Assembly: GCA_036507075.1 (NCBI GenBank)
Contig: DASXQR010000228.1
Location: 1-64,000 of the forward strand
Direction of reading: 5' to 3'
From: Acidobacteriota bacterium
GTDB taxonomy: Bacteria > Acidobacteriota > UBA6911 > JACQSX01
Length of the DNA: 64,000 nt
The translations under genes were made by a program, and so were the position numbers. The notes under the pieces are model-generated. The model was not told the DNA's origin. It saw only the letters and a program-made list of their open reading frames with translations, and made no database searches. Shown here in pieces: positions 101 to 62,910 of the stretch (positions within the stretch are counted from its first letter, which is position 1; the number at the start of each line of letters is the position of its first letter).

Positions 101-340
101 CAGACCGCGAAGCGGTCAAAGAATATAGCCAGGGGCAAGCGCGTGTTTTGCGCGCCGCCCCTGGTGAGCTTCTTTCAAACAACCGCACCCTGAAGGGGTG
201 CCAGAATTGTTTGCAGGATCGCCTTCACCATGTCGCTCTTCGACCCTTCCAGGGTCGCCCTGGTTTGGGGGCGACGGGGGCGGCGCGCAAAACACGCGCT
301 TGCCCCCGGCTATTCTATTTGACGCTTTCAGCGTCCAGAC
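101..340. repeat. REP/REPIN-like nested inverted repeat
   Basis: TAGCCAGGGGCAAGCGCGTGTTTTGCGCGCCGCCCC (~126-161) is mirrored at ~276-312; internal mini-hairpins CCCTGAAGGG and CGACCCTTCCAGGGTCG. Confidence 0.8.
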
Positions 341-511
341 CGAGAATTCAATGCTTTAGACTGGTTCCCTGCAGGAGGTCCTTTTTTGGTTGTGGGTCTG
401 TGGCCACTCCTATAATTTTCGTGCCTCGAACTTCGACTTTCGACCCTCTACTGTCTGACCTCCACCTCCCCACAACAAGGCCTTCGACAATTTTTGATGT
501 AAACCGATTCA

Positions 512-530
512 GATATTGACAATCATTATC
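512..530 (+). promoter_or_regulatory. Fur box overlapping a TTGACA -35 element of feoAB
   Basis: GATATTGACAATCATTATC matches the Fur consensus GATAATGATAATCATTATC at 17/19 positions, 25 nt upstream of feoA; TTGACA at 516-521. Confidence 0.85.
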
Positions 531-554
531 AATTAGAGCTAAATTACTGAAACC

Positions 555-788
555 ATGGAAACAACGCTGGCGGATTTGCAGGCAGGAGAGAGGGGAGTCA
601 TTATCGGTTTCACCCTGCCAATGGAGACACAGCTTCGATTTATGGAGCTGGGTTTTCTGGAGGGACACGAAGTCCGACTGGTGCGCGTTGCGCCCTTAAA
701 GGACCCTCTGGAAGTCGGCGTTCTCAGCTCTAAAATCTCGATACGCCGCGCTGAGGCGAGCGGCATTCGCCTCAAACGTCTTGGATAA
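555..788 (+). CDS. feoA: ferrous iron transport protein A
   Basis: 77 aa with ELGFLEG..V.LVRVAPLKDPLE...SIRRAEA FeoA pattern; directly upstream of feoB. Confidence 0.93.
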   Translation: METTLADLQAGERGVIIGFTLPMETQLRFMELGFLEGHEVRLVRVAPLKDPLEVGVLSSKISIRRAEASGIRLKRLG

Positions 789-2622
789 GATCTTCGCGAT
801 TGCCGGGAATCCAAACTCCGGCAAAACCACCATCTTTAACCACCTGACCGGGCTTCGTCAGAAAGTCGCCAATTATCCTGGTGTCACCGTAGAAAAAGTC
901 GCGGGAAAAGTCAGACTAAACGGCCACGATTGCACCGTAATCGACCTGCCGGGCACCTACAGCGTTCATCCACGCTCGCCCGAAGAGACAATCGCATGTG
1001 AAGTGCTCTGTGGCCTGCGTCCTGAAGTCCCGCCGCCGTCGGGCGTGGTGTGCGTTGTTGACAGCACCAACCTGGAGAGAAATCTTTACCTTGCGCTTCA
1101 GATCAAAGAAATCGGTCTTCCAATGCTGCTGGTCTTGAATATGGCTGACGAAATGAACGCCCGGGGTGGAATGATCGACCGGGGGAAGCTTTCCGAGCAA
1201 CTGGGCATACCCGTAGTTTCATCGGTTGGAAACCGGGGAGTGGGATTGGATGAGATTCGAAAATTCATTTCCCAGCATTCCAACGGATTGAGCGATCGCC
1301 CCGCTCTGAGAATACCCCCTGCAATCCCGAACGCCGATGAAGTGCGAGACCGGTATCGCCAAACCCATCAGATCCTGGCAGCGGCTCGGATTCAGCAACT
1401 CTCGGATTCCAAGGTGCAGCAGGCCGTCGACCGGGTAGTGATGCATCCGCTGTGGGGAACAATTCTCTTTTTCGTCATTGTAATTTTGGTTTTCCAGTCG
1501 ATCTTTTCGTGGTCTACCCCTTTACGGGACGGAATCGCGGTTGGTTTCGCCAACATGGGCGTTTGGGTCAAGAATCATGTGTCCAACGTCATCTTGCGCG
1601 GGTTGATTTCCGATGGCGTGCTTGCCGGTGTGGGATCGGTGCTTACTTTCCTCCCCCAGATTTTCACGCTGTTTTTCTTTATCGCTCTGCTGGAAGACTC
1701 CGGGTACATGGCACGCGCCGCCTTCCTGATGGATCGCGTGATGAAGAAAATCGGGCTGCAAGGGAAAAGTTTCCTGCCCCTGCTCAGTTCCTACGCCTGC
1801 GCGATTCCGGGAATCATGGCCTGCCGCACCATCGAAAACAAGAACGACCGGCTGGCGACGATGATGATTGCCCCCCTGATGACCTGCAGCGCCAGGCTGC
1901 CCGTTTATACGCTGCTGATCGCGGCATTTATTCCTGCCACCCCTGTGCTGGGCAGCTTTATGTCGTTGCCTACACTGGCGCTGCTGGGACTGTATGCGCT
2001 GGGATTGGGAACGGCAATGCTGGTGGCGGCAGTGTTGAAGTCTTCCATCCTGAAATCTAAAGACACACCGTTCATCCTCGAAATTCCCCCTTACCGGCTG
2101 CCCAACGCGCGCACTGTGTTCAACACCATGTGGAATCGCTCCCGTTTGTTCGTGCGGCGCGCGGGTACGGTTATTCTCGGAATTTCACTTGTGCTTTGGG
2201 CACTGGCCAGTTTTCCGCCTAATGCGGACATAAATCACAGCGTGGCGGGGAAAATCGGGCATTTGATCGAGCCGGCGATTCGACCCCTGGGTTTTGACTG
2301 GCGCATCGGAATCGGCCTGATCGCTTCATTTGCCGCGCGCGAAGTGATCGTCAGCAGCCTCTCGACTATCTACAACGTGCAACTGGGAGACAAAGGGATG
2401 AGCCTGGTGGAAACCGTGCGCCAGCAGATGACGCCGTTGACGGCCGTTTCACTGATGGTGTTTTTTGCTCTCGCCTGCCAGTGCATGTCGACGCTGGCCG
2501 TGGTGCGGCGGGAAACCAACGGCTGGCGCTGGCCTGTATTCCTGTTTACCTACATGACTGTCCTTGCCTACGTGTGCTCTCTTCTTGTCTACCAGGGAGG
2601 CCGGCTCCTCGGCTTCTCCTAG
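781..2622 (+). CDS. feoB: ferrous iron transport protein B
   Basis: G-domain motifs GNPNSGKT, NYPGVTVE, DLPGTYS, NMAD followed by a polytopic membrane domain (LEDSGYMARAAF, CSARLPVY); TTG start. Confidence 0.96.
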   Translation: MDKIFAIAGNPNSGKTTIFNHLTGLRQKVANYPGVTVEKVAGKVRLNGHDCTVIDLPGTYSVHPRSPEETIACEVLCGLRPEVPPPSGVVCVVDSTNLERNLYLALQIKEIGLPMLLVLNMADEMNARGGMIDRGKLSEQLGIPVVSSVGNRGVGLDEIRKFISQHSNGLSDRPALRIPPAIPNADEVRDRYRQTHQILAAARIQQLSDSKVQQAVDRVVMHPLWGTILFFVIVILVFQSIFSWSTPLRDGIAVGFANMGVWVKNHVSNVILRGLISDGVLAGVGSVLTFLPQIFTLFFFIALLEDSGYMARAAFLMDRVMKKIGLQGKSFLPLLSSYACAIPGIMACRTIENKNDRLATMMIAPLMTCSARLPVYTLLIAAFIPATPVLGSFMSLPTLALLGLYALGLGTAMLVAAVLKSSILKSKDTPFILEIPPYRLPNARTVFNTMWNRSRLFVRRAGTVILGISLVLWALASFPPNADINHSVAGKIGHLIEPAIRPLGFDWRIGIGLIASFAAREVIVSSLSTIYNVQLGDKGMSLVETVRQQMTPLTAVSLMVFFALACQCMSTLAVVRRETNGWRWPVFLFTYMTVLAYVCSLLVYQGGRLLGFS

Positions 2623-2759
2623 CCCGAAATTATTCACGAAAATCTAACCGCAAAGACCGCCAAGAACGCCAAGACAGCGCCAGGGAAGGGGCCTTGGCGC
2701 TACTCTTAGCGTTCTTGGCGATCTTTGCGGTTAAAATTTCGTGAATAATTTCGGGCTAG
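2619..2759. repeat. palindromic element bounded by CTAG, with nested ACC-GCAAAG/GCCAAG arms
   Basis: CTAGCCCGAAATTATTCACGAAA...TTTCGTGAATAATTTCGGGCTAG; fills the whole gap between two convergent genes. Confidence 0.9.
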
Positions 2760-3442
2760 ACTTTGCGCAGCAGGACGTAGATTGCGCCCGTTCCTCCATC
2801 GCACGGGCGGGCGGACGCGTACGCGAGCACGTAGCGAGACAGCCTCCGGCCGAAAAGCCATTCCTGCAGCCGCGCCTTCAGGATCGGTGTCTTGCTTTGA
2901 GAATTGTTTCCTTTGCCGTGGATAATACGCACGCAGCCCAGGTGCCGGCGGGCGGAATCCTTGATAAAGCGAAGCACTTCATCGCGCGCCTCCTTTTGTG
3001 TCATGCCATGAAGGTCACACTGTGCTCGGACGCTGAATTCGCCGCGACGAAGCTTTCTCATCACTGTCCGGCTCACGGCGGGATGAGAGGCTTCGATATA
3101 TTCGCTCTGGAGGTCTCCCACCACGTTCCAAAGTTCGTTCAGGAGGACGGTTTCGAAGGGATCGCTTTCCGACCTCACGACGACCCGTGGTTTGGAGCCT
3201 GGAACGACCCGCGGGGGGATTTGCTTGACGTCCCGCATGGCCCAACGAAACAGTGCATCTCCCTGGAGGTTTTCCGGCCACGCACCGTTATTCCCGGATG
3301 GCGTGGCTGATTTCACGACAGTTGACAGCGGCTCCTGCAACGATCCGGATACTCGGAGCGTCGATCTTGGTGCGGCTTCTGCTACCTTAAACGATTTCAA
3401 GTCACTCAAACTCTTGGCGCGCAATACAGCCCTTTTGCCCAT
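2756..3442 (-). CDS. Smr/MutS2 C-terminal domain endonuclease (SmrA/SmrB-like)
   Basis: CDLHGMT, IIHGKG and GGTGAIYVLL motifs. Confidence 0.9.
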   Translation of the reverse strand: MGKRAVLRAKSLSDLKSFKVAEAAPRSTLRVSGSLQEPLSTVVKSATPSGNNGAWPENLQGDALFRWAMRDVKQIPPRVVPGSKPRVVVRSESDPFETVLLNELWNVVGDLQSEYIEASHPAVSRTVMRKLRRGEFSVRAQCDLHGMTQKEARDEVLRFIKDSARRHLGCVRIIHGKGNNSQSKTPILKARLQEWLFGRRLSRYVLAYASARPCDGGTGAIYVLLRKV

Positions 3443-5341: not shown

Positions 5342-5463
5342 GCACGAATTACACGAATTTCACGAATCAATTTCCTTACTGGTGAAGCTTGATCGCCAAT
5401 TCTTAAAGTTTAATTCGTGAAATTCGTGTTTAATTCGTATTAATTCGTGAATGAAAATTCGTA
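5342..5463. repeat. CACGAATT/AATTCGTG palindromic repeat element
   Basis: CACGAATT-type units on the left and AATTCGTG-type units on the right; related copies at ~3463-3488, 46695-46720 and 47164-47229. Confidence 0.8.
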
Positions 5464-5469: not shown

Positions 5470-7782
5470 CTACTGCGGCGGTACATTCGCCAGCGCCGAT
5501 CCGCTGTAGGTTCCAAACAGCTCGAGTGCAAAGATGGGAGCGGAAGCGGCTACTTTTATGAAGCCGCCTGCCATCCCATTGGCAGCCGGAAGCAATTCTG
5601 CTCCCAGCAGGCGAGAGATTTTCTGGTTTGGTCTTAACACCAGTGAAAAGCTGCCCACCGGGCTGCCGTCCGGCCGGAACACTTCTACACTTACGGTCAC
5701 ATCGGCTGCATTAGGGTTAAGGAAAGCCAGGCCGGTGAAAAAGCCCTGCGCTTCGGCCGCGTGCGAGAAATTGTGAGTGACACGGGGCGTCGCTTGTGCA
5801 GCAACCGCTGCGAGCTGCTGGTCATTTCCGTAAGAGACAAACCCCTGGATCTGGCCAAATGACGCCGGCCCGATGCCGATCGGCCCCGGGTCAGCCTGCC
5901 GGTTTGACTCGATCATCAGCCAGCCATCGTTTAGTTCGGCGCCGCCGATTCCAAAAAGAGTCTGCACGCTGGTCAAAAACTCTCCCCTGGCGGGTACCGG
6001 GACGACGCGAGGATTCCCGCCGGCTGCGGTAAACAGAGTTCCGTCGTTACGGTAGGCAAACACTCGGAGTATGATTTCATGGTCTTCAAGATTGACTGCG
6101 CCAATCGTGGTGCCGTAAAGCCCGCCGGAAGCAAACTGGGGGAAGTAAATGCGCGTCCAGCCTTCTGTGATGGACTGAGCATTCAACGCTCCGAGGCGCC
6201 GCGTGTTTCCAAAAACCTCATGCGGGACTAAAGGGCGGTCGGCCGTGATCAGAAGGTAGCCTTCTGTTTTATCCGCCGTTTCCGGCACGATATTCTGAGC
6301 CAGATCGCGCAGCAGCCCGTGCGCGCCGATCACCACCTGCCGGCGCCCCATCAGCGTGCCGTTTGTCGCGTAATAGTCAATCGTCGCGTTTGCGGGGTCC
6401 GAATTGGGATTGACAACGCTGACTTCCGTAAACTGGTCTTGCCCCAGCGAAATTACCGGCAAAATGCTTCGCGTGTACATGCGGTCCGTGGCGTCAGCGC
6501 CGTCGATGAAATTCACCGCCGTATCCGCGAAAAGCGAAAAGCCGCGCACCACGTCGGGCGTGATCACCGACATCCATCCATCCAGGCTTGTCCCCAAACC
6601 CAGAGCTTCGCTCGCGAGACGGGCGAACTGGCGATTCCTGGCTAGTGAAAAGCCTCTCGAAGGAAGCGGCAAGCCTCCGGAAAAGGCAGTCAGCGTCAAG
6701 CTTGTATCGGCGTCCAGATTGGTAAAAGCCAGTCCGGTAAAGGTGGATGCCGACTGGGCTATGCGCGGAAAATTAAGCTGGGTGGGAATCTGAATAATCG
6801 AAATGGAGCCTTCTGACTGTTCGTTGACCACCCAGAACTGGCTTCGACGCGGGTCATACGCGATTCCATAGTACGGATTTCCCTGCACCGGAATGGCTTG
6901 TGTTTCGGTTTTGCCCTGCAAATCAACTACGAATGCCCGATCGCATGTCTCGCACACCGTGAGCGCATATCTGCCGTATGGTTGTGCTTGAACATTGTGA
7001 GCGAAGTCTCCCAGCGCCTGTTCTCCAAGCAGCCGGCCATCTTTCATGTCGAACCGCCGAAAATTCGGTCCGCCCGTGTCAAATGCGACCAGCACCTGAT
7101 TAGGCTGCGCGAGCACCTGCAGGCCGTACGCGCCGGAGAAATCACCTTCAGTAGTCGCCACTTTCTCACCGGATGTGAGATTGATGATGGCAACCTGCCC
7201 GCGGCGGAGCCCGACCGCCGCATGATTGGTCAGGGGATTAAGGTCTACACCTCTGTCGATGTCAGCAACGGGAATGCTGCGTTTCAATGCAAACGTGTTC
7301 AGATCAACCACGTGAAGCACGTTTTTCCCGGAACTCGGAATGAAAGCTTCGTCGGTTACCGGGTTGATCGCGACGTCCGGATTGGAAACACCCTCGAGTC
7401 GGATGCTGGCCACTGCCTTCTTTTGCGCCAGATCGATGATGAAGCAGGCGCGGTTGAACTCGTCGGTCCCCTCGCCCTGCTGACCGACCACCACGGCCAG
7501 CGGCTTTGTGGGATGCACGGCCACACCGCTCGGCCTCAGACCAACGCGTATGCGCGTGCGGATCAGGCGGCTGTTCAAATCGATCAGCGTTGCGATGTAT
7601 TGCTCGGAATTCCCTTCAGAGAGCGCGGTGCTGTGCACCACCACTGCCAGGTCGGTTGTCTCACTGATTGCAATATCATGCGGATTGGACGCCACGTTGA
7701 CGGTGGCAATTACCCTTGCCTGCGAAAAGACCGGAGCAACAAGCAGCACTGCCATCACGGCGCAAACAGCAGGGGTCCTCAT
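5470..7782 (-). CDS. secreted YncE/YVTN-like beta-propeller fused to repeated beta-sandwich-like modules
   Basis: AAGGAG RBS and signal peptide at 7782; YVTN-like blades (VGLRPSGVAV, PDVAINP); about 4 C-terminal modules starting FTGLAFTN/FTEVSVVNP/TTIGAVN/FTGLAFLNP. Confidence 0.75.
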   Translation of the reverse strand: MRTPAVCAVMAVLLVAPVFSQARVIATVNVASNPHDIAISETTDLAVVVHSTALSEGNSEQYIATLIDLNSRLIRTRIRVGLRPSGVAVHPTKPLAVVVGQQGEGTDEFNRACFIIDLAQKKAVASIRLEGVSNPDVAINPVTDEAFIPSSGKNVLHVVDLNTFALKRSIPVADIDRGVDLNPLTNHAAVGLRRGQVAIINLTSGEKVATTEGDFSGAYGLQVLAQPNQVLVAFDTGGPNFRRFDMKDGRLLGEQALGDFAHNVQAQPYGRYALTVCETCDRAFVVDLQGKTETQAIPVQGNPYYGIAYDPRRSQFWVVNEQSEGSISIIQIPTQLNFPRIAQSASTFTGLAFTNLDADTSLTLTAFSGGLPLPSRGFSLARNRQFARLASEALGLGTSLDGWMSVITPDVVRGFSLFADTAVNFIDGADATDRMYTRSILPVISLGQDQFTEVSVVNPNSDPANATIDYYATNGTLMGRRQVVIGAHGLLRDLAQNIVPETADKTEGYLLITADRPLVPHEVFGNTRRLGALNAQSITEGWTRIYFPQFASGGLYGTTIGAVNLEDHEIILRVFAYRNDGTLFTAAGGNPRVVPVPARGEFLTSVQTLFGIGGAELNDGWLMIESNRQADPGPIGIGPASFGQIQGFVSYGNDQQLAAVAAQATPRVTHNFSHAAEAQGFFTGLAFLNPNAADVTVSVEVFRPDGSPVGSFSLVLRPNQKISRLLGAELLPAANGMAGGFIKVAASAPIFALELFGTYSGSALANVPPQ

Positions 7783-7833
7783 GCCCGCTCCTTTTTGTTT
7801 CTCTACCAATCTTACCAAGGAAGGCGACGGAAT

Positions 7834-8052
7834 AAGTCGAAGGTCGAAAGTCGAAGGTCGAAAGTCGAAAGTCGAAAGTCGAAGGTCGAAAGTCGAAGGT
7901 CGAAGATCTCTCGAAACTCGATTTTCGACATTGAACTTTCGACTTTCCAACTTTCGACTTTTGACGTCGACTTTTGCCCTTCCAAATTTTTAGCTTCGGC
8001 TTTCGACTTTCGGACTTTTGACTTTCGACCTTAGACTTTTCATTCGACTTTC
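7834..8052. repeat. inverted heptamer arrays (GTCGAAR)n ... (TTTCGAC)n
   Basis: Visible tandem heptamers; right arm overlaps the hemY stop. Confidence 0.9.
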
Positions 8053-9401
8053 GAAGCCATCGCGGCGGCGACGGCTTTGGCTCTGCCAATACAATCGGGA
8101 ATTCCCACTCCGTAATACGCCGCTCCTGCAAGGTGGACGCCCGGAGCCGACGTCTTCAAGCCGCGTTCCAGACTTGCAATCAGTTTGTTATGACCCACCA
8201 GGTATTGGGGATTGGCTTTGCCCCATCTTATGATCCGTGAAAAGCGGGGCTGGGCGCGAATCCCCAGGATATTCTCCAGCTCCTGGGACACGAGCCGCAG
8301 GAAAGGCTTGTCTTCCATCTCCACGATCGAATCGCCTCCGGCAAAAACGCGCAGCATGCTGAAGCCAGGCGGAACTCTGCCGGCGAATTTTTGGGAGCTG
8401 AACGTGATCGCTCTGATGGAGCGCCTCTCAGATTTGGGAATCAGGACGCCATAGGCTTTGGGAATCGAAACCGGCGAGTCGTAAACCATGATCGCCACGA
8501 TCGACGACGTCGCTTCGAGCCGGCTCAGCTCAGGCAGCAATGTCGGTGGGGAGAGCATTTTCCGCAGGCTGTCCGGATCCACGGTGACCACGACCTGGTC
8601 AGCATGAATCTCATCCCTGCCGGTGTGGAGCCGATAACCGGATTCCATTCTTTCGATCCTATGCACGGCAGTTTCAGAGCAGAGAGCGGCGTCGACCTTT
8701 CTCAACAGCGTTTGCGTCAGGGTCTCCATGCCATCGCTTAAAGTCACAAACAAGCTGCGACCACCGGCGCTCGGAAGTTTTCGCCGGTTGATTCCCTTTG
8801 TAACGCTGCCGTAGCTTCGCTCCAGCTCCACGAGCTGCGGGAAGGTTGCCTGTATGCTGAGACGTTCGGGATCGCCCATGTAAATTCCGGCCAGCAAGGG
8901 TCCACCCAGCAGATCCAGTGCTTCCGACCCAAAGCGTCGCCGCACAAAAGAGGCGATGCTTTCGTCTTCCGAATCTTTTCTGGCGGGCCGAAACCGCTCT
9001 CGCAGCACCTCCACTTTTCCGGAGAATGAAAACAGCGATGATTTCAGAAACGAACCGACGCTCAGCGGGGCAAGCAGGTGAAAATGATCCGGAACGGGCG
9101 CCAGTTTTCCATCGCGCAGGACCAGCGTGCGACTATGCTCTTTTTGAGAAGAGAGCACCTGACCGGACAGGTTCAGTTCCTCGACCAGTTCCAAAGCGCC
9201 CGGCTTGGAGGTAATGAATGCATCCGGTCCCCATTCGATAACGCATCCATCGCGGCGCTCAGTGATGATTTTTCCGCCCCAATAGCGCGAAGCTTCCAGT
9301 ACCGCTATGGATATTTGCGGTTTTAAGCGACGAAGATAATAGGCCGTGGCCAGCCCTGAGATCCCGCCTCCGACGATGGCTACTCCGCAGCGACGAATCA
9401 T
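8040..9401 (-). CDS. hemY: HemY-type copro/protoporphyrinogen oxidase
   Basis: GGGISGL FAD motif, EWGPDAF, LLAGIYMGD, PQYLVGH, GVGIPDCI. Confidence 0.92.
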   Translation of the reverse strand: MIRRCGVAIVGGGISGLATAYYLRRLKPQISIAVLEASRYWGGKIITERRDGCVIEWGPDAFITSKPGALELVEELNLSGQVLSSQKEHSRTLVLRDGKLAPVPDHFHLLAPLSVGSFLKSSLFSFSGKVEVLRERFRPARKDSEDESIASFVRRRFGSEALDLLGGPLLAGIYMGDPERLSIQATFPQLVELERSYGSVTKGINRRKLPSAGGRSLFVTLSDGMETLTQTLLRKVDAALCSETAVHRIERMESGYRLHTGRDEIHADQVVVTVDPDSLRKMLSPPTLLPELSRLEATSSIVAIMVYDSPVSIPKAYGVLIPKSERRSIRAITFSSQKFAGRVPPGFSMLRVFAGGDSIVEMEDKPFLRLVSQELENILGIRAQPRFSRIIRWGKANPQYLVGHNKLIASLERGLKTSAPGVHLAGAAYYGVGIPDCIGRAKAVAAAMASKVE

Positions 9402-9474
9402 TCCGACATTTTACAAGCGTAATGAAGAATCAAAAAACCGAACATCCGAGCGGCCGGGATACTAACCATCCTGA

Positions 9475-9605
9475 GCCACGAAGGCACGAAGACACGAAGG
9501 AGGATGTTTTGTTTAAAGTGCTACTTCTCACAACTCGATCATGGTGCTGCAGAAGTGACACTTCTGACTGAATCATTGCACTTCGTGTCTTCGTGTCTTC
9601 GTGGC
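9475..9605. repeat. MITE-like palindrome with GCCACGAAG(N)CACGAAG arms and AGAAGTGACACTT core
   Basis: Terminal inverted triple CACGAAG; homologous to 15697-15829 and 28762-28893. Confidence 0.85.
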
Positions 9606-9612
9606 AAACCAT

Positions 9613-10524
9613 CTACCATCCCTTCACCTGTGCCAGGACGACCTGAGACAGAGCTTCGATGAATTCAGGTCGGTCATTGCAGGAAGCAACCCTGGCGAAT
9701 TGGAAGCCCAGGCCTTCAGCCTGACGGCGGTAGAGAATGTCACCGTCGTACAGGATCTCGACATGATCGGCCACAAACCCGATGGGATGAATGATCAGTT
9801 TCTCGAACCCTGCAGCCCGCAATCTGGGAATCTCTTCTCCGGCATCCGGACCGAGCCACTCCTCGCTGCTCTGAGCCCGGCTCTGATAGGCAAAGAAGGC
9901 CGCCTTGGGCTTTACAATTTCACACACGGCTGTGACAGTTGCCCGCAATTGTTCCGGGTATGGATCGCCCTCCGACAAGATCCGCTTTGGAAGGCTGTGC
10001 GCTGTGAACAGCACCGCCAGCTTGTCATCTCCTCCCATGGCGGCGATTGACTGTGCCAGGGATCCGGCGCATGCCCGTATGTAAGCCGGCTGAAGATGCC
10101 AGCTCTGCACAAACCGCAGAGCCATTTCCGGGTAAACGGCCTGGCGTGCCGTTTCTGTCTGCTTCATGTAAGCGCCAATGCTCATTGCAGAGAAGTGCGG
10201 CGCCATGCACAAAGCCACTGCCTTCTTAATTTCCGCTGCGGCAATCTCCTGAATCGCCTCTCGAATGTAGGGATGCCAATGCCGCATTCCCACAAAAGTT
10301 TTGTAGTTTTGTCTTTCCAGGTTCAGCCTCCGCTCCAGCGCCTTTGCCTGGCGGCGAGTGATCTCCAGCAGTGGAGACCTGCCTCCAATGAGGCGGTAAC
10401 GTTCCCGTACTTCGTCAAGAAACTCGCGCGAGACCGGTCTCCCGTGCCGGACATCGAGCAGGTAGGGCTCGACATCGTCCAAACTCAACGGCCCGCCGTA
10501 GGCGAGTAGCAACACCGCGATCAT
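9613..10524 (-). CDS. hemH: ferrochelatase (coproporphyrin ferrochelatase-like)
   Basis: LLAYGGP, GGRSPL, GMRHWHPYI, FTAHSLP, GFVADHVEILYD motifs. Confidence 0.95.
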   Translation of the reverse strand: MIAVLLLAYGGPLSLDDVEPYLLDVRHGRPVSREFLDEVRERYRLIGGRSPLLEITRRQAKALERRLNLERQNYKTFVGMRHWHPYIREAIQEIAAAEIKKAVALCMAPHFSAMSIGAYMKQTETARQAVYPEMALRFVQSWHLQPAYIRACAGSLAQSIAAMGGDDKLAVLFTAHSLPKRILSEGDPYPEQLRATVTAVCEIVKPKAAFFAYQSRAQSSEEWLGPDAGEEIPRLRAAGFEKLIIHPIGFVADHVEILYDGDILYRRQAEGLGFQFARVASCNDRPEFIEALSQVVLAQVKGW

Positions 10525-10541
10525 GTCTTAAAATCCCATCC

Positions 10542-10742
10542 AAAGTCTGAAAGTCGACAATCAGTCAGTCACTCAGTCTGTCAGTCTGTCAGTCCGTCAG
10601 TCCGTCAGTCCGTCAGTCTGTCAGTCCCTCCTGGTTTCAATTGGTAACTGATCGACCGACTGACTGACCGACTGATCGACTGATCGACTGACCGACTGAT
10701 TGATCAACTTTTGATTTTTGATTTTCAGCCTTTCGACTTTTG
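10542..10742. repeat. composite palindrome of (TCAG/TCAGTCYG)n and (CTGA)n arms with a unique core
   Basis: Core GGTTTCAATTGGTAACTGATC (10633-10653) recurs inverted at 11912-11932. Confidence 0.88.
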
Positions 10743-11756
10743 GCTATGGACCAATTCGACGATCGCCTGGACACTTTCCACCGGAGTGGCGGGCAGGATT
10801 CCATGTCCGAGATTGAAAATGTAGCCCGGCCCGGACCCAGCCTGCTGCAAGACCTTCTGCGCCTGTAACAACGCGCCCTGGAGCGGTCCAAGCAGGCACA
10901 CGGGGTCCAGGTTGCCCTGCACGGCACGGTCGCGCAGAATTCGTCTTGCACGCGCCAGATCTACGCGCCAGTCAAGCGAGATCACATCTCCACCGCAGTT
11001 GGAAAACTCCTCCAGATATCCGCCGATGCCGGTGGCAAAGTGGACAACAGGCACGCCGGCCGAAGCTACTTCCCTGAGCAGCGCTGACGAATGCGGTTGA
11101 ACAAATGTTCGAAAATCATCCGGCCCCAGAGTCCCCAGCCAACTGTCAAACACCTGCACTGCCGACGCCCCCGCTTCGATCTGGGCCCGCAAGAAGGCAG
11201 CCTGGTGCCGGACCAAAAAGTCCATCAGGCGATGCCAGGCGGGAGGGCTTTCGTACATGAACAACTTGGTGCGCTCAAAGCTGCGGCTTGCTCCGCCTTC
11301 GATCATGTAGCTGGCCAGCGTAAACGGCGCGCCGGCGAAACCAATCAGCGGCACTCTCCCGTTTAGCTCCCTCACCACCAGCCGGATCGTTTCCAATACC
11401 GCTGCCAGTTCCATCTGTGGATCGAACGATCTGAGGCGCTCCACGTCCTGCGCGGAAGCAACAGGATTGAAAATAACCGGCCCTTCTCCCTGCTGGAAAT
11501 CAAAATCAAGTCCCATGGGCTTAAGGGGCAGCAGCAGGTCGGCAAAGAGGATAGCGGCATCCAGGTCGAACCTGCGCAGCGGCTGCAGGGTAACCTGACA
11601 GGCCAGCTCGGGATGGGAACAGATTTCAAGAATGGTGTGGCTTTCACGGATCGCGCGGTACTCGGGCAGGTAGCGTCCTGCCTGCCGCATAAACCAAACC
11701 GGCACGCTTTCTGTGGCCTCACGCCGGCAGGCTCGCAAAAATCTGTCGTTGTCCAT
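10725..11756 (-). CDS. hemE: uroporphyrinogen decarboxylase
   Basis: PVWFMRQAGRYLPEY, GFAGAPFTLASYMIEG, QGNLDP, FNLGHGI signatures. Confidence 0.97.
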   Translation of the reverse strand: MDNDRFLRACRREATESVPVWFMRQAGRYLPEYRAIRESHTILEICSHPELACQVTLQPLRRFDLDAAILFADLLLPLKPMGLDFDFQQGEGPVIFNPVASAQDVERLRSFDPQMELAAVLETIRLVVRELNGRVPLIGFAGAPFTLASYMIEGGASRSFERTKLFMYESPPAWHRLMDFLVRHQAAFLRAQIEAGASAVQVFDSWLGTLGPDDFRTFVQPHSSALLREVASAGVPVVHFATGIGGYLEEFSNCGGDVISLDWRVDLARARRILRDRAVQGNLDPVCLLGPLQGALLQAQKVLQQAGSGPGYIFNLGHGILPATPVESVQAIVELVHSQKSKG

Positions 11757-12090
11757 TGTCCGTGGTCAGTAGTCCGTTGTCACTTCTTCGTGAATGTCGA
11801 AGGTCTGAGTCAAAAGTCGATCAGTCGATCAGTCGGTCAGTCTGTCAGTCGGTCAGTCTGTCTGTCAGTCGGTCAGTCAGTTGGTCACTCAGTTCAGTTG
11901 GTCAGTCAGTTGATCAGTTACCAATTGAAACCCGGGGGGGACTGACAGACTGACAGACTGACTGACTGAAAGACTGACTGACTGAAAGGCTGACAGACTG
12001 AAAGACTGACAGACTGACAGACTGAAAGACAGACTGACTGAAAGACTGACAGACTTAACCACTGACAACTGACCACGGACAACGGACCAT
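11748..12090. repeat. nested palindrome: outer (TTGTCCR)/(YGGACAA) arms, inner (TCAG)n/(CTGA)n arms
   Basis: Visible nested arrays; the hemE ATG lies within the outer arm. Confidence 0.88.
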
Positions 12091-12092
12091 CC

Positions 12093-13202: not shown

Positions 13203-13371
13203 TCTGGCTCTCCTTGTCGTTATATCCGCCGGCTGCAACATTAAACCACAAGGCGTCAGGTCTTCGAAATTCGGCTTTGGTATTTGCGTCCCGATGCGCT
13301 CAAAAACCGAATTCCGAAGACCGGATGCTTATGGTAGGCTCCGAACATCGCATTTTTTCAAGATAGTAAAT

Positions 13372-13551
13372 ATGCTTCCCAGGAAACCAGCAACGCTGGA
13401 GCAATTAATTGAGGTCCTCCGAAAATCAGGCTTTGAAGTTGAAGACGTCGCCACCTTCTTGAATGGAAACGCGGTCAAGAAGCCGCCGGCGCCGGCACCG
13501 CACCCGTCACTGGAAGCCGACGAGCGTCCCAAAAAGATGAAGAAACGCTGA
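13372..13551 (+). CDS. small hypothetical protein
   Basis: 59 aa ORF (MLPRKPATLEQLIEVLRKSGFEVEDV...) just upstream of the TMTC-like gene; weak RBS. Confidence 0.4.
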   Translation: MLPRKPATLEQLIEVLRKSGFEVEDVATFLNGNAVKKPPAPAPHPSLEADERPKKMKKR

Positions 13552-13572
13552 AACAATGGGCGGAGAAGCCAT

Positions 13573-15660: not shown

Positions 15661-15696
15661 GCGGCCGCAGGTCGATGTCTGGGCAAATTCGAGATT

Positions 15697-15829
15697 GCCA
15701 CGAAGGCACGAAGCCACGAAGAATCTAAACTGACCTAAAAGTGTCACTTCTCGGAAGACTATCGAGACTTTCGAGAAGTGTCCCCTTCGAGATGAATACC
15801 CAAGCTTCGTGTCTTCGTGGCTTCGTGGC
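15697..15829. repeat. MITE-like palindrome (CACGAAG arms, AAGTGTCACTTCT core)
   Basis: 26 nt at 15731-15756 are identical in reverse complement to 28835-28860. Confidence 0.88.
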
Positions 15830-15906
15830 GAGGTTTGGATCCGGTGTGATTCCTGCCGCAGTGACCGAACATCCAAAATCAGTTATAGTAGCGCCTGCTT
15901 AAACGA

Positions 15907-19465: not shown

Positions 19466-19495
19466 CACCTGGTTATATTCGAGCAGAAACTTTTT

Positions 19496-19642
19496 TCACC
19501 ACAAAGGCACAAACGGCACAAAATCAACCCGGTGCAGGCAGAGGCCGGTCAGTCTAAATCCGCCACTATAGTCGGCAGTCCGTAGCTGACCGGCCTCTAC
19601 CTGCACCGGGTTCGCTTCGTGTTCTTTGTGTCTTTGTGGTGG
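19496..19642. repeat. nested palindrome with ACCACAAAG arms and a 27-bp inner stem
   Basis: Inner stem 19526-19552/19586-19612; lies between convergent genes. Confidence 0.88.
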
Positions 19643-19659
19643 AGATTTCTTGCCCTGAT

Positions 19660-20034: not shown

Positions 20035-20152
20035 AATGCGGATTTCGGAATGCGGAATGCGGAATAAGTTAGTGATTTTCATTTCGGCGTAAGAAACCTG
20101 AATTCGATATATTCCGCATTCCCCATTCCCCATTCCGCATTCCCCATTCCGC
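20035..20152. repeat. inverted heptamer arrays (GGAATGC)n ... (CATTCCS)n
   Basis: Same unit at 37501-37732 and 55871-56058. Confidence 0.88.
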
Positions 20153-20156
20153 CGGC

Positions 20157-21173: not shown

Positions 21174-21229
21174 CGGGAAAATTTGAAAATTCCAAAATTT
21201 AAAATTGAAGAATTGCCGAATGGAGTGTT

Positions 21230-21370
21230 CCACCACAAAGGCACGAAGGACACAAAGTTAGGCCTGGGTGCCGCTGACCGGTTTTGCTTCGTGCCCTTTG
21301 TGCCTTTGTGGTTTAAGTTCGAGTTTCCTCACCCAACTCGAAACTCGTAACCCGGAAACCCGTAACCCGG
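21230..21370. repeat. ACCACAAAG-arm palindrome followed by (AACYCG)-type array
   Basis: Palindrome 21230-21312; degenerate repeats 21318-21370. Confidence 0.8.
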
Positions 21371-21377
21371 AGGAGAC

Positions 21378-25387: not shown

Positions 25388-25390
25388 GCT

Positions 25391-25582
25391 CGAGTTTCGG
25401 GCTGACGGGTTACGGGTTTACGAGTTACGGGTTCGGGAATTATTCAGCATCACGTCTGTAGTTTTCGATCTTCAATTTGACAAACTCTCAAACCGCAACT
25501 CACAACCCGCAAACCCGTAACCCGCAAACCCGCAACCCACAAACCCGCAACCCGTAACCCGCAAACCCGAAACTCGCAAACC
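25391..25582. repeat. inverted 7/8-mer arrays (ACGGGTT)n ... (AACCCGY)n
   Basis: Short left arm and long right arm; same unit as 35948-36165. Confidence 0.88.
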
Positions 25583-27378: not shown

Positions 27379-27555
27379 AAAAGCCGTCCACGTGCACGAC
27401 CACGTCAACGTCCACGAACACATAACGACAACGTCTACGTTGGATGCTCGCATCTGGCGGCAAACAGACTGGAGAGGCTAGAGCTCATTTTTCGTCATCG
27501 TGGACCTGGACGCGGTCGTTGACGTGCACGTGGTCGTAGACGTGGACGGCTTTTT
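27379..27555. repeat. hexamer-array palindrome AAAAGCCGTCCACG...CGTGGACGGCTTTT
   Basis: CACGTC/GACCAC-type hexamers; same family as the inner part of 62661-62910. Confidence 0.85.
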
Positions 27556-28703: not shown

Positions 28704-28926
28704 CAGTGGTCCGTTGTCAGTGGTCCGTTGTCAGTGGTCAGTTGTCAGTTGTCCGGGGATTGTCACGAAGCCACGAAGACACGAAGCTTTCGGATTGATC
28801 TTGACGGGAACACTTCTGGAAATCCCTGATAATGTTCCGAGAAGTGACACTTTTAGGTCACTTTAGATCTTCGTGTCTTCGTGGCTTCGTGGCAAGTCAC
28901 GGACAACTGACAACGGACCACCGACT
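28704..28926. repeat. nested palindrome: outer (GTCMGTK) heptamer arms around a CACGAAG-arm element
   Basis: Outer arms 28704-28755 and ~28900-28926; inner element 28762-28893. Confidence 0.9.
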
Positions 28927-29925: not shown

Positions 29926-30013
29926 GAAAGGCGGAAGGCGGAAAGCAGAAGGCAGGAGGCAGGAGGCAGAAGGCAGAAGTCAGGAGGCAGGAGGTAGAAG
30001 GCAGGAAGCAAGG
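29926..30013. repeat. single-arm heptamer array (GGCAGRA)n
   Basis: About 12 degenerate units; related array at 53128-53174. Confidence 0.85.
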
Positions 30014-32523: not shown

Positions 32524-32587
32524 CTTTGTGTTCTTTGTGTCTTTGTGGTCGAAAAGCAGTCACCACAAAGGCACAAAGAACACTAAG
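32524..32587. repeat. tail-to-tail ACAAAG-unit hairpin containing the cinA stop
   Basis: CTTTGTGTTCTTTGTGTCTTTGTGGT...ACCACAAAGGCACAAAGAACACTAAG. Confidence 0.85.
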
Positions 32588-33863: not shown

Positions 33864-34096
33864 AAGAACTGGCCGCTGATTTACACGAATTGATACGGAT
33901 AGAAATAGGCCGCCGATTTACACGAATTAACACGGAAGAATAGCGGGGCCGAGGGATGGGCCACGATGCTCAGCGTAACGGACACACAGTGGTAGCAGAG
34001 CCCATCCCTCGGCCCCGATATTAATCAGCGTAATTTGCGTAAATCGGCGGCCTATTTCTATCCGTATCAATTCGCGTAAATCAGCGGCTAGTTCTT
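33864..34096. repeat. 233-bp near-perfect hairpin (GCCGCYGATTTAC arms)
   Basis: Outer 66-bp arms differ by about 4 transitions; inner 18-bp stem; half copy at ~51620-51655. Confidence 0.9.
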
Positions 34097-35947: not shown

Positions 35948-36165
35948 CGAGTTCACGGGTTACGGGTTGACGGGTTGACCGGTTACGGGTTCACGGGTTG
36001 CGGGTTTGCGGGTTACGGGTTTGCGAGTTGAACTCGCTTGGTGCCTTGGTGGTTGATCAGTTTTTTTACCACCAAGGCACCAAGCCAGTTCAACTCACCA
36101 ACCCGCAAACCCGTAACCCGTCAACCGGCAACTCGCCAACCCGCCAACACGTAACTCGCCAACCG
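35948..36165. repeat. nested palindrome: (ACGGGTT)n/(AACCCGY)n arms around an ACCAAG-unit hairpin
   Basis: Inner stem 36036-36053/36068-36085; fills the rimO-yacG gap. Confidence 0.9.
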
Positions 36166-37500: not shown

Positions 37501-37732
37501 AAATGCGAAATGCGGAATGCGAAATGCGGAATAATAACCTTCCAGCAGGTCCGTTGTCCATTGTCCGTTGTCCGTTGTGATCGTACTCGTTCACGTTGTC
37601 GTGCTCGTGAACGTCGTCGTTAATGTGAATGGGCTGACAATCAACCGCCATCAACTGACAACGGACAACTGACAACGGACAGCCCTTCATGCCACATTCC
37701 GCATTCCCCATTCCGCATTCCGAAATCCGCAT
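37501..37732. repeat. triple-nested palindrome: GGAATGC arms > TTGTCCG arms > hexamer array
   Basis: Three repeat families arranged concentrically. Confidence 0.9.
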
Positions 37733-42222: not shown

Positions 42223-42552
42223 AGATGGAGGGACTGAGGGATGGAGGGATGGAGGGATGGAGGGATGGAGGGATGGAGGGATGGAGGGATGGAGGGACGG
42301 AGGGACTGAGGGACGGAGGGATGGAGGGACGGAGGGATGGAGGGACGGAGGGATGGAGGGACGGAGGGATGGAGGGACGGAGGGAGGACTAGCCTGAAAT
42401 CCCCGTGACCCTCTCTATCCCTCTATCTCTTTGTCCCTCTATCCCTCTATCCCTCTATCCCTCTATCCCTCAATCCCTCTATCCCCCTATCCCTCTATCC
42501 CTCTGTCCCTTCCTCTCTCCATCCCTCTCAATAGGGGTCTGTCCCCTTTTTT
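42223..42552. repeat. inverted octamer arrays (GGAGGGAY)~20 ... (ATCCCTCT)n plus GGGGTCTGTCCCC module
   Basis: Visible arrays 42226-42385 and ~42408-42530. Confidence 0.93.
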
Positions 42553-49868: not shown

Positions 49869-49875
49869 ACGCCCT

Positions 49876-49928
49876 GAATTGGGGGACAGTCCCCTTTTTG
49901 AATTGAATTGGGGGACAGTCCCCTTTTT
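49876..49928. repeat. tandem GAATTGGGGGACAGTCCCCTTTTT doublet
   Basis: Two 24-nt copies; related to GGGGTCTGTCCCCTTTTT at ~42534. Confidence 0.85.
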
Positions 49929-49954
49929 TCCCCAATTAGGCGCCAGAATAAGGG

Positions 49955-55870: not shown

Positions 55871-56058
55871 CGGAATGCGGAATGGGGAATGGGGAATGCG
55901 GAATGCGGCTCTCCATGTTGCACTTCTGCATTGCTCCCGGTGGTATTTGCAAGATCGAGGGTCCGCTTGCTTACGCACGCGGTTCTGATGGTGGTGTGGA
56001 GAAGTCCGCCCTTTCCGCATTCTCCATTCCGCATTCCGCATTCCCCATTCCGCATTCC
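55871..56058. repeat. (GGAATGS)n/(CATTCCS)n palindrome enclosing a REP-like unit
   Basis: Inner CCGCTTGCTTACGCACGCGGTTCTG at 55963-55987. Confidence 0.88.
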
Positions 56059-59971: not shown

Positions 59972-60032
59972 CGGCCTGACATGGCCGCCCGAAGTGAACA
60001 CAGGCGGCAACACGGGCGTTCATGTCAGGCCG
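59972..60032. repeat. intergenic hairpin
   Basis: CGGCCTGACATG...CATGTCAGGCCG. Confidence 0.65.
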
Positions 60033-60049
60033 CCCCGCTCACCCCTGCG

Positions 60050-62551
60050 TCATTTTGATGACGCGATCATTTCCCCGCGTGGCCCGGCGTTTTTCACGTA
60101 CTTGTCCATCCAGTTGATCATCTCGGCCAGAGTGTGCAGAACCGACTCGCGCGCGGCGTAGCCATGGGCTTCATGCGGAAGCGTCACGTACCGCACCGTG
60201 GCGCCGTGGCCTTTGAGAGCCATGTAGAGCCGCTCGGATTGAATCGGGAACGTACCCGAGTTGTCGTCTGCCTCGCCGTGAATCAGCAGGATCGGCTCAT
60301 TGATCCTGTTTGCGTACCAGAACGGCGACATCCTGGCATAGATATCCGGCACTTCCCAGAACGTGCGCCGCTCGTTCTGGAATCCGAAAGGCGTGAGCGT
60401 GCGGTTGTAGGCGCCGCTGCGCGCGATGCCGGCGCGGAACAGGTCCGAGTGCGCAAGCAGGTTGGCCGTCATGAAAGCGCCATAGCTGTGGCCGCCGATC
60501 CCAATGTGATCGCGGTCCGCCACGCCCATCTCGACGACCTTATTGATCGCGGCCTCTGCGCTGGCGACAAGCTGTTCAACATAAGTATTGTTCGCCGTCT
60601 CGCCCGGTCCTACGATCGGCATGGTCGGATTATCGAAGATCGCGTAACCCTGGGTCAGCAGAAACAGATGGGACGTGCCGCCCACTCTGATGAACCGATA
60701 CGGCGATCCTGAGACCTGGCTTGCGTCGTTCACATCGGTGAACTCGCGCGGGTACGCCCACATCAACATCGGCAATCGCTCGCCCTTCTTGTAGCCAGGC
60801 GGGAGGTACAACGTACCGGATAGCTTCACGCCGTCTTTTCGCTGGTAAGTGACAAACTGCTTTTCGACTCCGGTGAGCTGAGGGCCAGGATCTTTGAACT
60901 GGGTAATGGGACGCTTGGTGCCGGCGGCAAGATCGCGCACGTAGTAGTTCGCCGGCTCCAACGGCGTCTCGTACTGCGTGAACAGTGCCCTGGCCTGGTC
61001 ATCCAGCGGCGCCACCACCGATTCGTATGTTTTTTCCGCAGAGCGGAAAAGACGGTCTGTCTTGAGCGTCTTGAGGTTGAGCCTGTCGAGGAAAGGCCGA
61101 TCGCCATCCGGTGAGGAACCCTGCCCGCTCAAGTAAATGTAATCACCATACTGCAGGATCAATCTTCCCCCACCAAAGGCTCCGCCGCCGAATCCTCCTC
61201 CACGCCCACCTCCGCCGCCGTCGCCGCCGCCGTCTCTCCTCACTACAGGTAAACCGGGGTTGCTATATGCGTCCTGTCGTTTGCGCTCCCAAAGCTTGCG
61301 CGGCTGGGTGCCCTCTTCAAGAATCCAGGTCCGGGTACGCCGCGTCGCGCGGTCAGATTCGCTGAGCAGCATGACGCCCTTCTCTGTATAGGAGAGGCTG
61401 TCGAATCGCCATTCCGTTTTGCCAACTTCGCCGGCCTCCGCGGAGAACGGCGCCGCGAGTGCGACGATCCTGTCGCGGAATGGCACGCTGTTTTTCGGAT
61501 TTCCTTCATCCAGGGCCGCCACCCAGGTGATTGTCGCCGGTTGATCCGGACGCCAGCGATGGCCGCGCGGCCCCGACGGTACGCCGTTGATCGGCGTGCC
61601 TTCGCTCGACGGCAGGTCGGCAAGTTTTTTGACAACCTCGCCGCGCCGGTTCCAGATCTCCACATCTTTGGGAAATCCGCTCATCGGTACCAGGCGCGAG
61701 AAGGGTCGTTTGATCCGGGATACCAGGATGTAATCGCCGCTCGGCGACGCCGCTGCATTCTCCAGGATTCCGGGACGGCCGATCAGCGTCTTGCGACCGG
61801 TGCCGCTGTCAATGGTCGCGAGCTGGCTGGTGAAGTAATATTCAAACAGGGTCTCGTCATGGTTGGTCTTGATCAGATCCTCGAAAGTCGGAGCGGGCGC
61901 AGCTTTGCCGTAGTTTTCCTGGATATTGGGACGCGACGGCACAATCGGCTCGGCGGGGGCCGGTCCGCGGCCGGACGGCACCAATTGGCATAGCAGCGTG
62001 ACACCGTCTTTCAGCCAGTCACAGGCATCGCCTGCCGTCGCGTTCAGCCGGTCGGTCCCGCTCACCAGATTCGATTGTCCCGTGGCAGTGTCGGCGACCC
62101 ACAGCTCGATGCCGTTTTCCCTTGTATGGGTAAAGGAAAGCCGCTCGCCGCCGGGGGAAAAGCTGATATCGCCGAGGTTCGGATTGGACGGGAGAGTGAC
62201 CTTCTTCTCCGTGCCGTCTACGATTGATTTCAGCGTGATGGCGGTGACTCCGCCTCCGCGCTGCTGCCGCCCGTTCGTTTTCGGATTGATACGCATGCCG
62301 GCGATGCGATGGATCGGCTGGGACAACTCGGCAATCGTCGGCATGCTGCGCCGGCCGAGCAGGGCGATCGTGCGACGGTTTGGCGCAACGATCACGCCCG
62401 GTGTGGGCGGCGTCGCCAGAATATCAACGATGACTTTTGGCGGCGTCAGGTAACCCGTGTCCGTGGCAGGCTGCCGGCGTGTCTGTCCGTATTGCGCTGC
62501 CGACCCGACGATGACGAGCACGGCGGCAAACGCGAGCCTTTTTGTCCGCAT
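60050..62551 (-). CDS. S9 family peptidase (glutamyl endopeptidase-like)
   Basis: GGHSYGAF nucleophile, ARSGAYNR, DDNSGT, EAHGY; signal peptide. Confidence 0.93.
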   Translation of the reverse strand: MRTKRLAFAAVLVIVGSAAQYGQTRRQPATDTGYLTPPKVIVDILATPPTPGVIVAPNRRTIALLGRRSMPTIAELSQPIHRIAGMRINPKTNGRQQRGGGVTAITLKSIVDGTEKKVTLPSNPNLGDISFSPGGERLSFTHTRENGIELWVADTATGQSNLVSGTDRLNATAGDACDWLKDGVTLLCQLVPSGRGPAPAEPIVPSRPNIQENYGKAAPAPTFEDLIKTNHDETLFEYYFTSQLATIDSGTGRKTLIGRPGILENAAASPSGDYILVSRIKRPFSRLVPMSGFPKDVEIWNRRGEVVKKLADLPSSEGTPINGVPSGPRGHRWRPDQPATITWVAALDEGNPKNSVPFRDRIVALAAPFSAEAGEVGKTEWRFDSLSYTEKGVMLLSESDRATRRTRTWILEEGTQPRKLWERKRQDAYSNPGLPVVRRDGGGDGGGGGRGGGFGGGAFGGGRLILQYGDYIYLSGQGSSPDGDRPFLDRLNLKTLKTDRLFRSAEKTYESVVAPLDDQARALFTQYETPLEPANYYVRDLAAGTKRPITQFKDPGPQLTGVEKQFVTYQRKDGVKLSGTLYLPPGYKKGERLPMLMWAYPREFTDVNDASQVSGSPYRFIRVGGTSHLFLLTQGYAIFDNPTMPIVGPGETANNTYVEQLVASAEAAINKVVEMGVADRDHIGIGGHSYGAFMTANLLAHSDLFRAGIARSGAYNRTLTPFGFQNERRTFWEVPDIYARMSPFWYANRINEPILLIHGEADDNSGTFPIQSERLYMALKGHGATVRYVTLPHEAHGYAARESVLHTLAEMINWMDKYVKNAGPRGEMIASSK

Positions 62552-62660
62552 GGCAAACCTCCTGCTTCAGTTGGGCTGTTCTCGGGAAAGTCATATTCTA
62601 GCAGCAGACGCGCATGTCTTGCGGCAGGAATTCTGCCTTTTCAGCCCGCCAGCAAGGACT

Positions 62661-62910
62661 TCACCACAGAGGCACAGCCCGGCCGTAGGCCGCAACCAAA
62701 AAGCCGTCCACGTTCGCGAGTACTTCCACGTCAACGACCACGTCTCAGGTCCACGAACACCACAAAATACAGACAGCCCCTCGATTCTGCGCAGTCTCTG
62801 ACCAACCGAGGGAAGTCGTAAACGTAATCGTGGACGTTGACGTGAACGTGCTCGTGAACGTGGACGGCTTTTTGGTTGCGGCCTACGGCCGGGTTGTGCC
62901 TCTGTGGTGA
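62661..62910. repeat. triple-nested palindrome: ACC-ACAGAG end > GCCGCAACCAAA module > hexamer array
   Basis: About 55-bp near-perfect terminal inverted repeats. Confidence 0.92.

Follow-up and report, generated by a model that had tools for sequence, protein, structure and literature searches.

We analysed the inverted-repeat elements in a stretch of 64,000 nucleotides (nt) from an Acidobacteriota bacterium (assembly GCA_036507075.1, contig DASXQR010000228.1; here G000:C228:1-64000, hereafter the window), together with the rest of its 6.1 Mb genome (G000, 233 contigs). These long hairpins, most of which have arms built from short tandem units, are real, dispersed, copied elements with sharp ends, a fixed arm order and no target duplication. 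The versions that carry a gene share a promoter-like motif with genes for DNA uptake, a point absent from the first-pass annotation of the window. We propose, with about even confidence, that the hairpins are gene-less copies of such cassettes, that the cargo proteins are made during natural competence and act on the single-stranded arms, and that the element is pasted or swapped. This bears on how short-unit intergenic repeats spread and on what the four-helix-bundle proteins of the intervening sequence (IVS) type and the GxxExxY proteins do.

The repeat families were obtained by clustering 3806 tandem arrays by word content into 320 clusters, of which 19 families (2805 arrays) were retained; these are the larger clusters with short, mostly 6-10-nt periods, while the clusters left out are mostly small, low-complexity or mixed. 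The genome contains seven four-helix loci (PF05635), six GxxExxY loci (PF13366 PDDEXK_3) and 12 Y1 matches (PF01797). The four-helix genes sit in or beside arms of families 2, 4, 6, 8, 9 and 12, and those of contigs C199, C73 and C231 lie inside paired arms, i.e., in the loop of a long stem. The GxxExxY genes adjoin arms with 8-9-nt units from families 1, 3 and 5, to which inspection by eye adds family 13. The Y1 genes have long inverted flanks, mostly non-tandem palindromes, and none of the 12 is enclosed by paired tandem arms. The suggestion of the first-pass annotation that such repeats flank four-helix, GxxExxY and RAYT genes, as in other genomes, is borne out, the first two by the same arm families and the Y1/RAYT genes by long palindromes. 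The four-helix family also matches TIGR02436 and has a solved relative (2gsc); we know of no catalytic role for it. The GxxExxY proteins match TIGR04256 (141 bits), and four of the five aligned carry the D and E-x-K positions, which we take to be the core residues of a PD-(D/E)XK enzyme; the fifth is truncated.

The cassettes show signs of decay. Two of the seven four-helix loci are frameshifted, and two of the six GxxExxY loci are truncated or broken. A short element on contig C82 retains the arms, the promoter and the first ~70 coding bases of the C231 cassette, with the rest gone; this is the one clear deletion derivative for the earlier idea that the hairpins are cargo-less versions of such elements. 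Promoter remnants occur in 15 of 615 loops of at least 30 nt (3.2 expected), and no remnants of the cargo proteins were found in loops beyond the known cassettes. The pairing of protein and arm extends to other genomes. The C199 protein has 80 close relatives in the set compared, whose records are titled Blastocatellia, Anaerolineales, Bacteroidota groups, Scalindua, Nitrospira and others; family-6 arms accompany 69 of them on one or both sides, 44 of these on both.

A two-part motif lies directly 5' of genes from all three cargo families. A matrix trained on 19 upstream regions (6/7 four-helix, 5/6 GxxExxY and 8/12 Y1) gave leave-one-out scores of 24.7-54.8 bits, and 57 sites in the genome exceed 22 bits against none with each of five column-permuted matrices. 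The scan recovered two further Y1 genes, bringing the total to 10 of 12, and the remaining four cargo loci without a motif are either fragmentary or located at the edge of a contig. A distance of 17 nt separates the conserved blocks, and the second block frequently stops ~5 nt short of a start codon, a spacing and position that would fit a sigma-type promoter with leaderless transcripts. Only 39 genes have an upstream site among the 4388 of our own gene calls, on which all gap and intergenic counts rest. The 39 downstream open reading frames (ORFs) outside the training set were scanned for families: non-training sites precede comEA, comEC, comF, comM, dprA, radC, ssb and recA, as well as a ComGD/GspH-like pilin gene, recQ, recG, pcrA/uvrD, an ERCC4 nuclease gene and three RAYT-like genes, and about half of the scanned ORFs have no family or an unrelated one. 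None of the three GIY-YIG matches has a listed motif site. Since the motif is shared with DNA-uptake genes, the cargo proteins are likely made at competence.

The hairpins themselves are abundant and regular. Tandem rows with a period of 6-10 nt number 3215 in the genome against 126 in one shuffled genome, and 2704 of the 2805 family arrays are intergenic. They form 790 left-right paired elements of the 19 families, with a median loop of 70 nt and arms that are tandem arrays of variable length (median 35 nt); family 0 is the largest, with 422 arrays. The unequal arms noted earlier in the window are general, since arm lengths differ by more than 7 nt in 56% of the 790 pairs. The constant arm order claimed for each family holds genome-wide (786 against 28 reversed), except mostly in families 3 (reversed in 21 of 55 close pairs) and 13 (3 to 5), which are also reversed in the window, at 32524-32580 and inside 35948-36165. 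Elements occur in 426 of 1895 co-directional, 105 of 637 divergent and 150 of 566 convergent called gaps of at least 60 nt. In the 426 co-directional gaps they begin a median of 12.5 nt past the upstream stop, stop short of the next called start by a median of 55 nt and take up a median of 67% of the gap, so that of the earlier description of gaps filled from stop to start only the close fit to the stop stands. Direct repeats in the outer flanks are near chance for lengths of 4, 5, 7 and 8 nt, with a weak excess at 6 nt (28 vs 16).

Several results support that these elements are copied, in line with the earlier inference of several non-autonomous families. A near-full-length twin loop is present elsewhere in the genome for 106 of the 615 loops at ≥90% identity and for 57 at ≥95%, and several window elements have dispersed copies; two other window elements tested for a second genomic copy had none. 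In relatives, the orthologous gaps either lack an element or contain different ones, so presence and absence vary. The hemH-hemY gap, 215 nt in this genome, measures ~28 nt between protein matches in G003, the gap 5' of hemE, 340 nt in this genome, measures 3 nt in G002 and holds an unrelated insert in G003, and the hemE-hemH gap carries differing inserts in G002, G003 and G005. In sequencing run X2, from a different sample and study, contigs span 15697-15829 and 21177-21371 without differences. No clean empty site was seen among 15 of the 158 joints at 7600-27599 of the window; joints at arms have short sides and probably derive from other copies.

The elements were also claimed to insert preferentially into one another's loops. 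Genome-wide, 36 pairs are nested, none is crossed and one lies side by side within 150 nt. Where two elements share one called gap, they are nested in 32 cases and apart in two, whereas random placement (200 runs) gave 17.9 ± 4.3 nested (maximum 33) and 128 apart. The nesting count is therefore only modestly above chance, at 1.8 times the random expectation, yet nesting is nearly the sole way in which elements share a gap. The inner element usually occupies the whole loop, to within ~15 nt per side. Because some linkers recur at several loci, some of these composites must have been copied as whole units.

In the window, the tandem arrays reported earlier were recovered at the same places by Tandem Repeats Finder (TRF). 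Arrays of the 19 families occupy 24 of the 35 called gaps of at least 60 nt, and a few additional palindromes without tandem units, recognised by eye, bring the total near the 30-35 intergenic loci of the earlier count. The six loci that had been described as concentrically nested all fold as long hairpins, at -57 to -108 kcal/mol with DNA parameters against -26 to -47 for shuffled sequences. The features are as follows, with the evidence in brackets.

101..330: long palindromic element without tandem units (10 copies in the genome; the six compared are 83-86% alike)
2620..2760: composite hairpin with 9-nt-unit arms (family 5) within short outer arms, convergent genes either side (TRF, family pairing)
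5343..5460: 9-10-nt-unit hairpin (family 1) in a convergent gap (left arm from TRF, right arm recognised by eye)
7834..8054: 7-nt-unit hairpin (family 11) 3' of hemY (TRF, family pairing)
9475..9605: 8-nt-unit hairpin (family 1) in the hemH-hemY gap (8 genomic copies, sharp ends, best 94%)
10540..10740: 4/8-nt-unit hairpin (family 16) within degenerate heptamer arms in the hemE-hemH gap (TRF, family pairing)
11748..12090: nested, family 4 enclosing family 16, 5' of hemE (fold -101.5 vs -47.4 shuffled)
15697..15829: 8-nt-unit hairpin (family 1; bridged by a run X2 contig with zero differences)
19495..19640: 8-9-nt-unit hairpin (family 3) with an inner palindrome (TRF)
20035..20150: 7-nt-unit hairpin (family 0, the commonest family; TRF, family pairing)
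21177..21371: mixed arms 5' of lexA (TRF; bridged by an X2 contig)
25391..25582: 7-8-nt-unit hairpin (family 2; TRF, family pairing)
27385..27548: 6-nt-unit hairpin (family 9) between both methylmalonyl-CoA mutase genes (TRF, family pairing)
28704..28926: nested, family 4 enclosing family 1 (family pairing, folding)
29928..30004: lone family 6 arm; arms of this family enclose the four-helix gene of contig C199 (TRF, family pairing)
32524..32580: family 3 arms in reversed order (TRF)
33864..34085: long hairpin in a divergent gap, arms with a 37-nt period (3 genomic copies, 87-90%)
35948..36165: nested, family 2 enclosing 8-nt-unit arms of opposite order, after rimO (family pairing, folding)
37501..37732: nested, family 0 enclosing family 4, plus a lone 6-nt-unit array, tgpA-rimO gap (TRF, family pairing, folding)
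42224..42528: 8-nt-unit hairpin (family 7) with long unequal arms (TRF, family pairing)
55871..56058: family 0 hairpin in an ABC ATPase-permease gap (family pairing, folding)
62661..62910: three-layer composite with inner arms of family 9 (14 genomic copies of 62655-62915; fold -108.3 vs -39.7)
62764..62795, minus strand: possible decayed competence-type promoter in the loop (weak, 9.0 bits; suggestive only)

Some details of the first reading changed. At 37501-37732 the nesting of family 4 in family 0 stands, and the supposed third layer is a single array; at 55871-56058 the inner part is not a tandem-unit element. The gene following rimO, called yacG before, has a translation that reads like pgpA. 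No transposase was found in the 52 window ORFs scanned of 155 listed, as had been stated, and no Rfam family matched in the window. By eye, the ends of 62661-62910 match the cassette around a four-helix gene on contig C37, and the weak motif in its loop holds the same position relative to the arm as in that cassette; no motif site above 13 bits occurs in the window. The element at 101-330 resembles, by eye only, the inverted ends of a Y1 gene on contig C85. A short purine/pyrimidine palindrome at 49870-49930 is present in two direct copies, and palindromes of this type were also noticed by eye at the termini of the C163 Y1 gene. Families 3 and 13 form right-then-left junctions 8-14 nt apart at 32524-32580, 35090-35150 and 36030-36090, which look like circle or tandem junctions, and the same form follows the GxxExxY gene on C37. 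Directly 5' of hemE, a weak DndB-like gene (PF14072, 12093-13241) is found likewise in G002 and G003 (69-86% identical).

The association of the motif with uptake genes is also observed in other genomes. The strict pattern gave 63, 46, 9 and 1 sites in four genomes of the same family, and none in a genome of the same order or in the controls. The sites read in these relatives (ten each of G001 and G003, all nine of G002 and the one of G004) precede comF, comEC, radA, four-helix, Y1 and integron-integrase genes, and also recA and uvrD, the last two identified from the N-terminus only. In two genomes of another family in the same class a drifted motif was found, with 12 sites against none for the control in G013 (before dprA, comM, radC, pilT, one GxxExxY and one four-helix gene that both have arms, and a weak match to RAYT) and 18 against none in G021 (before dprA, comM, comEC, ssb, pilM, a pilin gene, two GxxExxY genes and an armed fragment that was named four-helix by eye). 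G025 has five sites, including those of dprA, comEC and yraN. The exact G000 pattern has one match across 150 other genomes of the phylum, which is not proof of absence because the motif drifts. A loose pattern gave counts near the control and was discarded, as was another with the wrong spacing, and motif discovery in Blastocatellia mostly picked up the terminal parts of upstream genes. At L055, L057, L071 and L074 (G004, G003 and G002), the motif is immediately followed by integron-integrase genes or fragments of them. At L205 (G050), a GxxExxY gene is preceded by an arm whose 9-nt unit is similar to the upstream half of the motif, possibly by chance.

Late-competence promoters are read by ComX/SigX in other bacteria. 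Like these, the motif has two parts and precedes comEA, comEC, comF, dprA, radC, ssb, recA and pilus genes, although its sequence and lineage are different. The elements resemble several described repeat systems as well (statements on cited papers refer to the passages covered here). Repetitive extragenic palindromes (REP, including REPIN and BIME) with their RAYT (TnpA-REP) proteins also comprise hundreds of intergenic hairpins just past stop codons and a small gene flanked by the repeat, without target duplication (PMC3733652), and the reported rise of the E. coli RAYT on competence induction (PMC5581495, citing Sinha 2009) parallels the motif link found here. On the other hand, our arms are arrays of 4-10-nt units in variable number and not 20-40-nt palindromes (a terminal four-base tag was not searched), the genes within tandem arms encode four-helix or GxxExxY and not HUH proteins, and three unrelated families stand under one promoter with uptake genes. 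The long palindromes, such as 101-330, may together with the Y1 genes correspond to what is described as TIRtrons with TIRYT (PMC3733652, PMC5581495), the match of 101-330 to the inverted flanks of the Y1 genes being by eye only. The Ssn/NTS/SRM system likewise combines a small gene flanked by its own hairpin repeat with many gene-less copies; for Ssn, action on single-stranded DNA (ssDNA) has been shown, SsnA cutting it at its own repeat and modulating transformation (PMC11893778). Ssn is however a GIY-YIG protein with single hairpins of 20-50 nt, whereas the cargo here is PF05635, PF13366 and PF01797.

The IVS of 23S rRNA with an S23p four-helix ORF have the same protein family in the loop of a long stem (PMC4990558), whereas our cassettes lie between protein genes, with tandem-unit arms and their own promoter; the four-helix cassette flanks viewed are mostly protein-coding by eye and not rRNA. 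Intergenic short-unit arrays, often in inverted pairs, are described for Geobacter metallireducens (paired tandem 7/8-mer sites at variable distance, PMC2700814), for Xanthomonas and Nostoc (heptamer repeats, PMC4692102) and for Beggiatoaceae (PMC4679880). They were interpreted there as regulator sites, quadruplexes or translation signals, and in the main-text passages covered they are not tied to four-helix or GxxExxY proteins or to competence. [quoted passage not shown] Overall, the elements lack defining features of REP/RAYT, Ssn, rRNA IVS and MITEs, and would work most like REP/RAYT and Ssn. No paper was found that connects arms of this kind with four-helix genes, GxxExxY genes or a competence promoter, in a search that mostly did not cover subscription journals and in which larger result sets were partly seen; the passages covered of PMC12378983 do not mention such cassettes.

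We propose the following scheme for the spread of the elements. Transforming DNA enters the cell as a single strand, and single strands in folded form are the substrates of Y1/HUH enzymes and integron integrases. An alternative sigma factor would read the motif, and in incoming or displaced single strands the arms would pair. Each protein subfamily would recognise its own repeat unit, and a GxxExxY (PD-(D/E)XK-type) or HUH enzyme would nick, with the host proteins DprA, RecA and ComM helping to paste or swap the hairpin. An existing hairpin just past a stop codon would be the preferred target, leading to nesting, and slippage would afterwards alter the arm lengths. From its position between conserved genes, the element could further travel by ordinary homologous recombination. 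Single-strand entry of transforming DNA is also stated in PMC11893778. In its most specific form, i.e., competence-gated, transposase-free copying in which four-helix and GxxExxY subfamilies read their own 6-10-nt code on ssDNA and the hairpins are pasted via DprA, RecA and ComM, we regard this scheme as a tentative possibility.

Several results weigh against the proposal. The 19 training regions were picked by eye, and since the patterns for G013 and G021 were derived from the upstream regions of comM, dprA and GxxExxY genes, only their other hits are independent (radC, pilT, pilM, pilin, comEC, ssb and four-helix genes). In G011 the motif precedes comM and dprA and is absent before the two GxxExxY genes tested, and in G006 it precedes comM only. 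In other classes and phyla the matrix gave no convincing site 5' of comM, dprA or cargo genes, and a Blastocatellia candidate motif picked by eye occurred no more often than its control. Of 23 more distant loci with a hit, 11 had a scorable arm, and at four of these the arm family was that of the nearest G000 protein. Family 0 has no cargo gene in G000, and as promoter remnants are only modestly enriched, most loops are untraceable to a cassette. The regulon includes repair genes, so DNA damage could be the trigger, and a search for the regulator gave 34 sigma-70 region-2 matches, none of which was singled out. An extracytoplasmic function (ECF) sigma gene on contig C17 was set aside as a candidate, as the nearby site lies inside the coding end of the gene and may be due to chance.

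Some of these results would suit a local capture of the promoter in this class, with movement independent of uptake, for example by Y1/RAYT proteins acting in trans on lagging strands. The promoter is present in five of the 80 close four-helix relatives and missing in 75, many of which abut the arm and leave no room for it; the genome has 12 Y1 matches, target duplication is absent as in HUH-type movement, and family 0 lacks cargo. We nevertheless judge this distinctly unlikely, as 10 of the 12 Y1 matches are themselves behind the motif, the Y1 genes lie in non-tandem palindromes and not in tandem arms, and the motif is kept, in altered form, before three unrelated cargo families across two genome families. 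The promoter evidence applies equally to a domesticated filter, in which cargo proteins made at competence would cut or block incoming arm-bearing ssDNA, comparable to SsnA and its NTS repeats; the hairpins would then tag DNA for restriction and spread only as a side effect. This appears unlikely: to our knowledge the four-helix proteins have no catalytic role, the broken cargo loci (2/7 and 2/6) fit the turnover of selfish cassettes, and the 57 loops with a twin at ≥95% indicate recent copying. The match of GxxExxY proteins to PF13366 PDDEXK_3 does fit such a filter, as does the approximately five-fold increase in transformation by repeat-bearing DNA upon loss of ssnA (PMC11893778).

In the first-pass annotation the hairpins were taken to be tolerated in mRNA, and elements like the 23S rRNA IVS could act at the RNA level, their arms pairing in the transcript, RNase III cutting and spread proceeding via RNA. 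The four-helix cargo belongs to the IVS protein family (PF05635; PMC4990558), the elements start a median of 12.5 nt past the stop codon, and in family 2 the sense strand folds better in 43 of 60 cases (43 to 17). Overall, however, there is no preference for folding of the sense strand (189 to 177), 105 of 637 divergent gaps hold elements, and neither of the two reverse transcriptase matches lies between paired arms, the one examined resembling a group II intron enzyme, which led us to reject reverse transcriptase as a mobiliser. An RNA-level role as the main point thus finds no support and we regard it as improbable. Local slippage or an assembly artefact would agree with arm lengths that vary freely and with an assembly in 233 contigs without long reads. 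It is very improbable and already largely refuted by the unique loops shared between unrelated loci (106/615 at ≥90%), the fixed arm order, the X2 contigs that bridge two window elements without differences, and the presence of the same arms around homologous genes in other phyla.

If the proposal holds in its most specific form, four-helix, GxxExxY, RAYT and integron-integrase proteins would form one guild of single-strand hairpin processors turned on together with DNA uptake. Two protein families that are very large and annotated without a function would then gain a job and a substrate. If the proteins read the units specifically, they would add to Ssn and RAYT a code of binders or nucleases specific for single strands. 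The shared promoter names both the condition (DNA uptake) and the substrate (the cognate single-stranded arm), so the proposal is testable with short oligonucleotides. The motif also outlines a likely competence regulon in this Acidobacteriota lineage.

Further observations concern the surroundings of motif sites. In the GxxExxY cassettes L083 and L086, the left arm opens with the start codon and the promoter is located outside this arm, while in the four-helix cassettes the promoter is inside the arm. A motif-preceded family without a Pfam or NCBIfam match (L008:418-1299 in G000 and L345:644-1474 in G021, 30% identical) is a candidate new competence gene. Locus L010 (G000:C28:94-2707) has three motif sites and encodes two paralogous, family-less 120-aa proteins and an ERCC4/helix-hairpin-helix nuclease. 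At L391:2962-4170, a group II intron-like reverse transcriptase gene stands beside a motif site on the opposite strand. Locus L025:398-2159 contains genes for an XRE regulator, an ECF sigma factor and a zinc-finger/tetratricopeptide (TPR) anti-sigma protein, with two motif sites nearby and a family-0 hairpin before the sigma gene.

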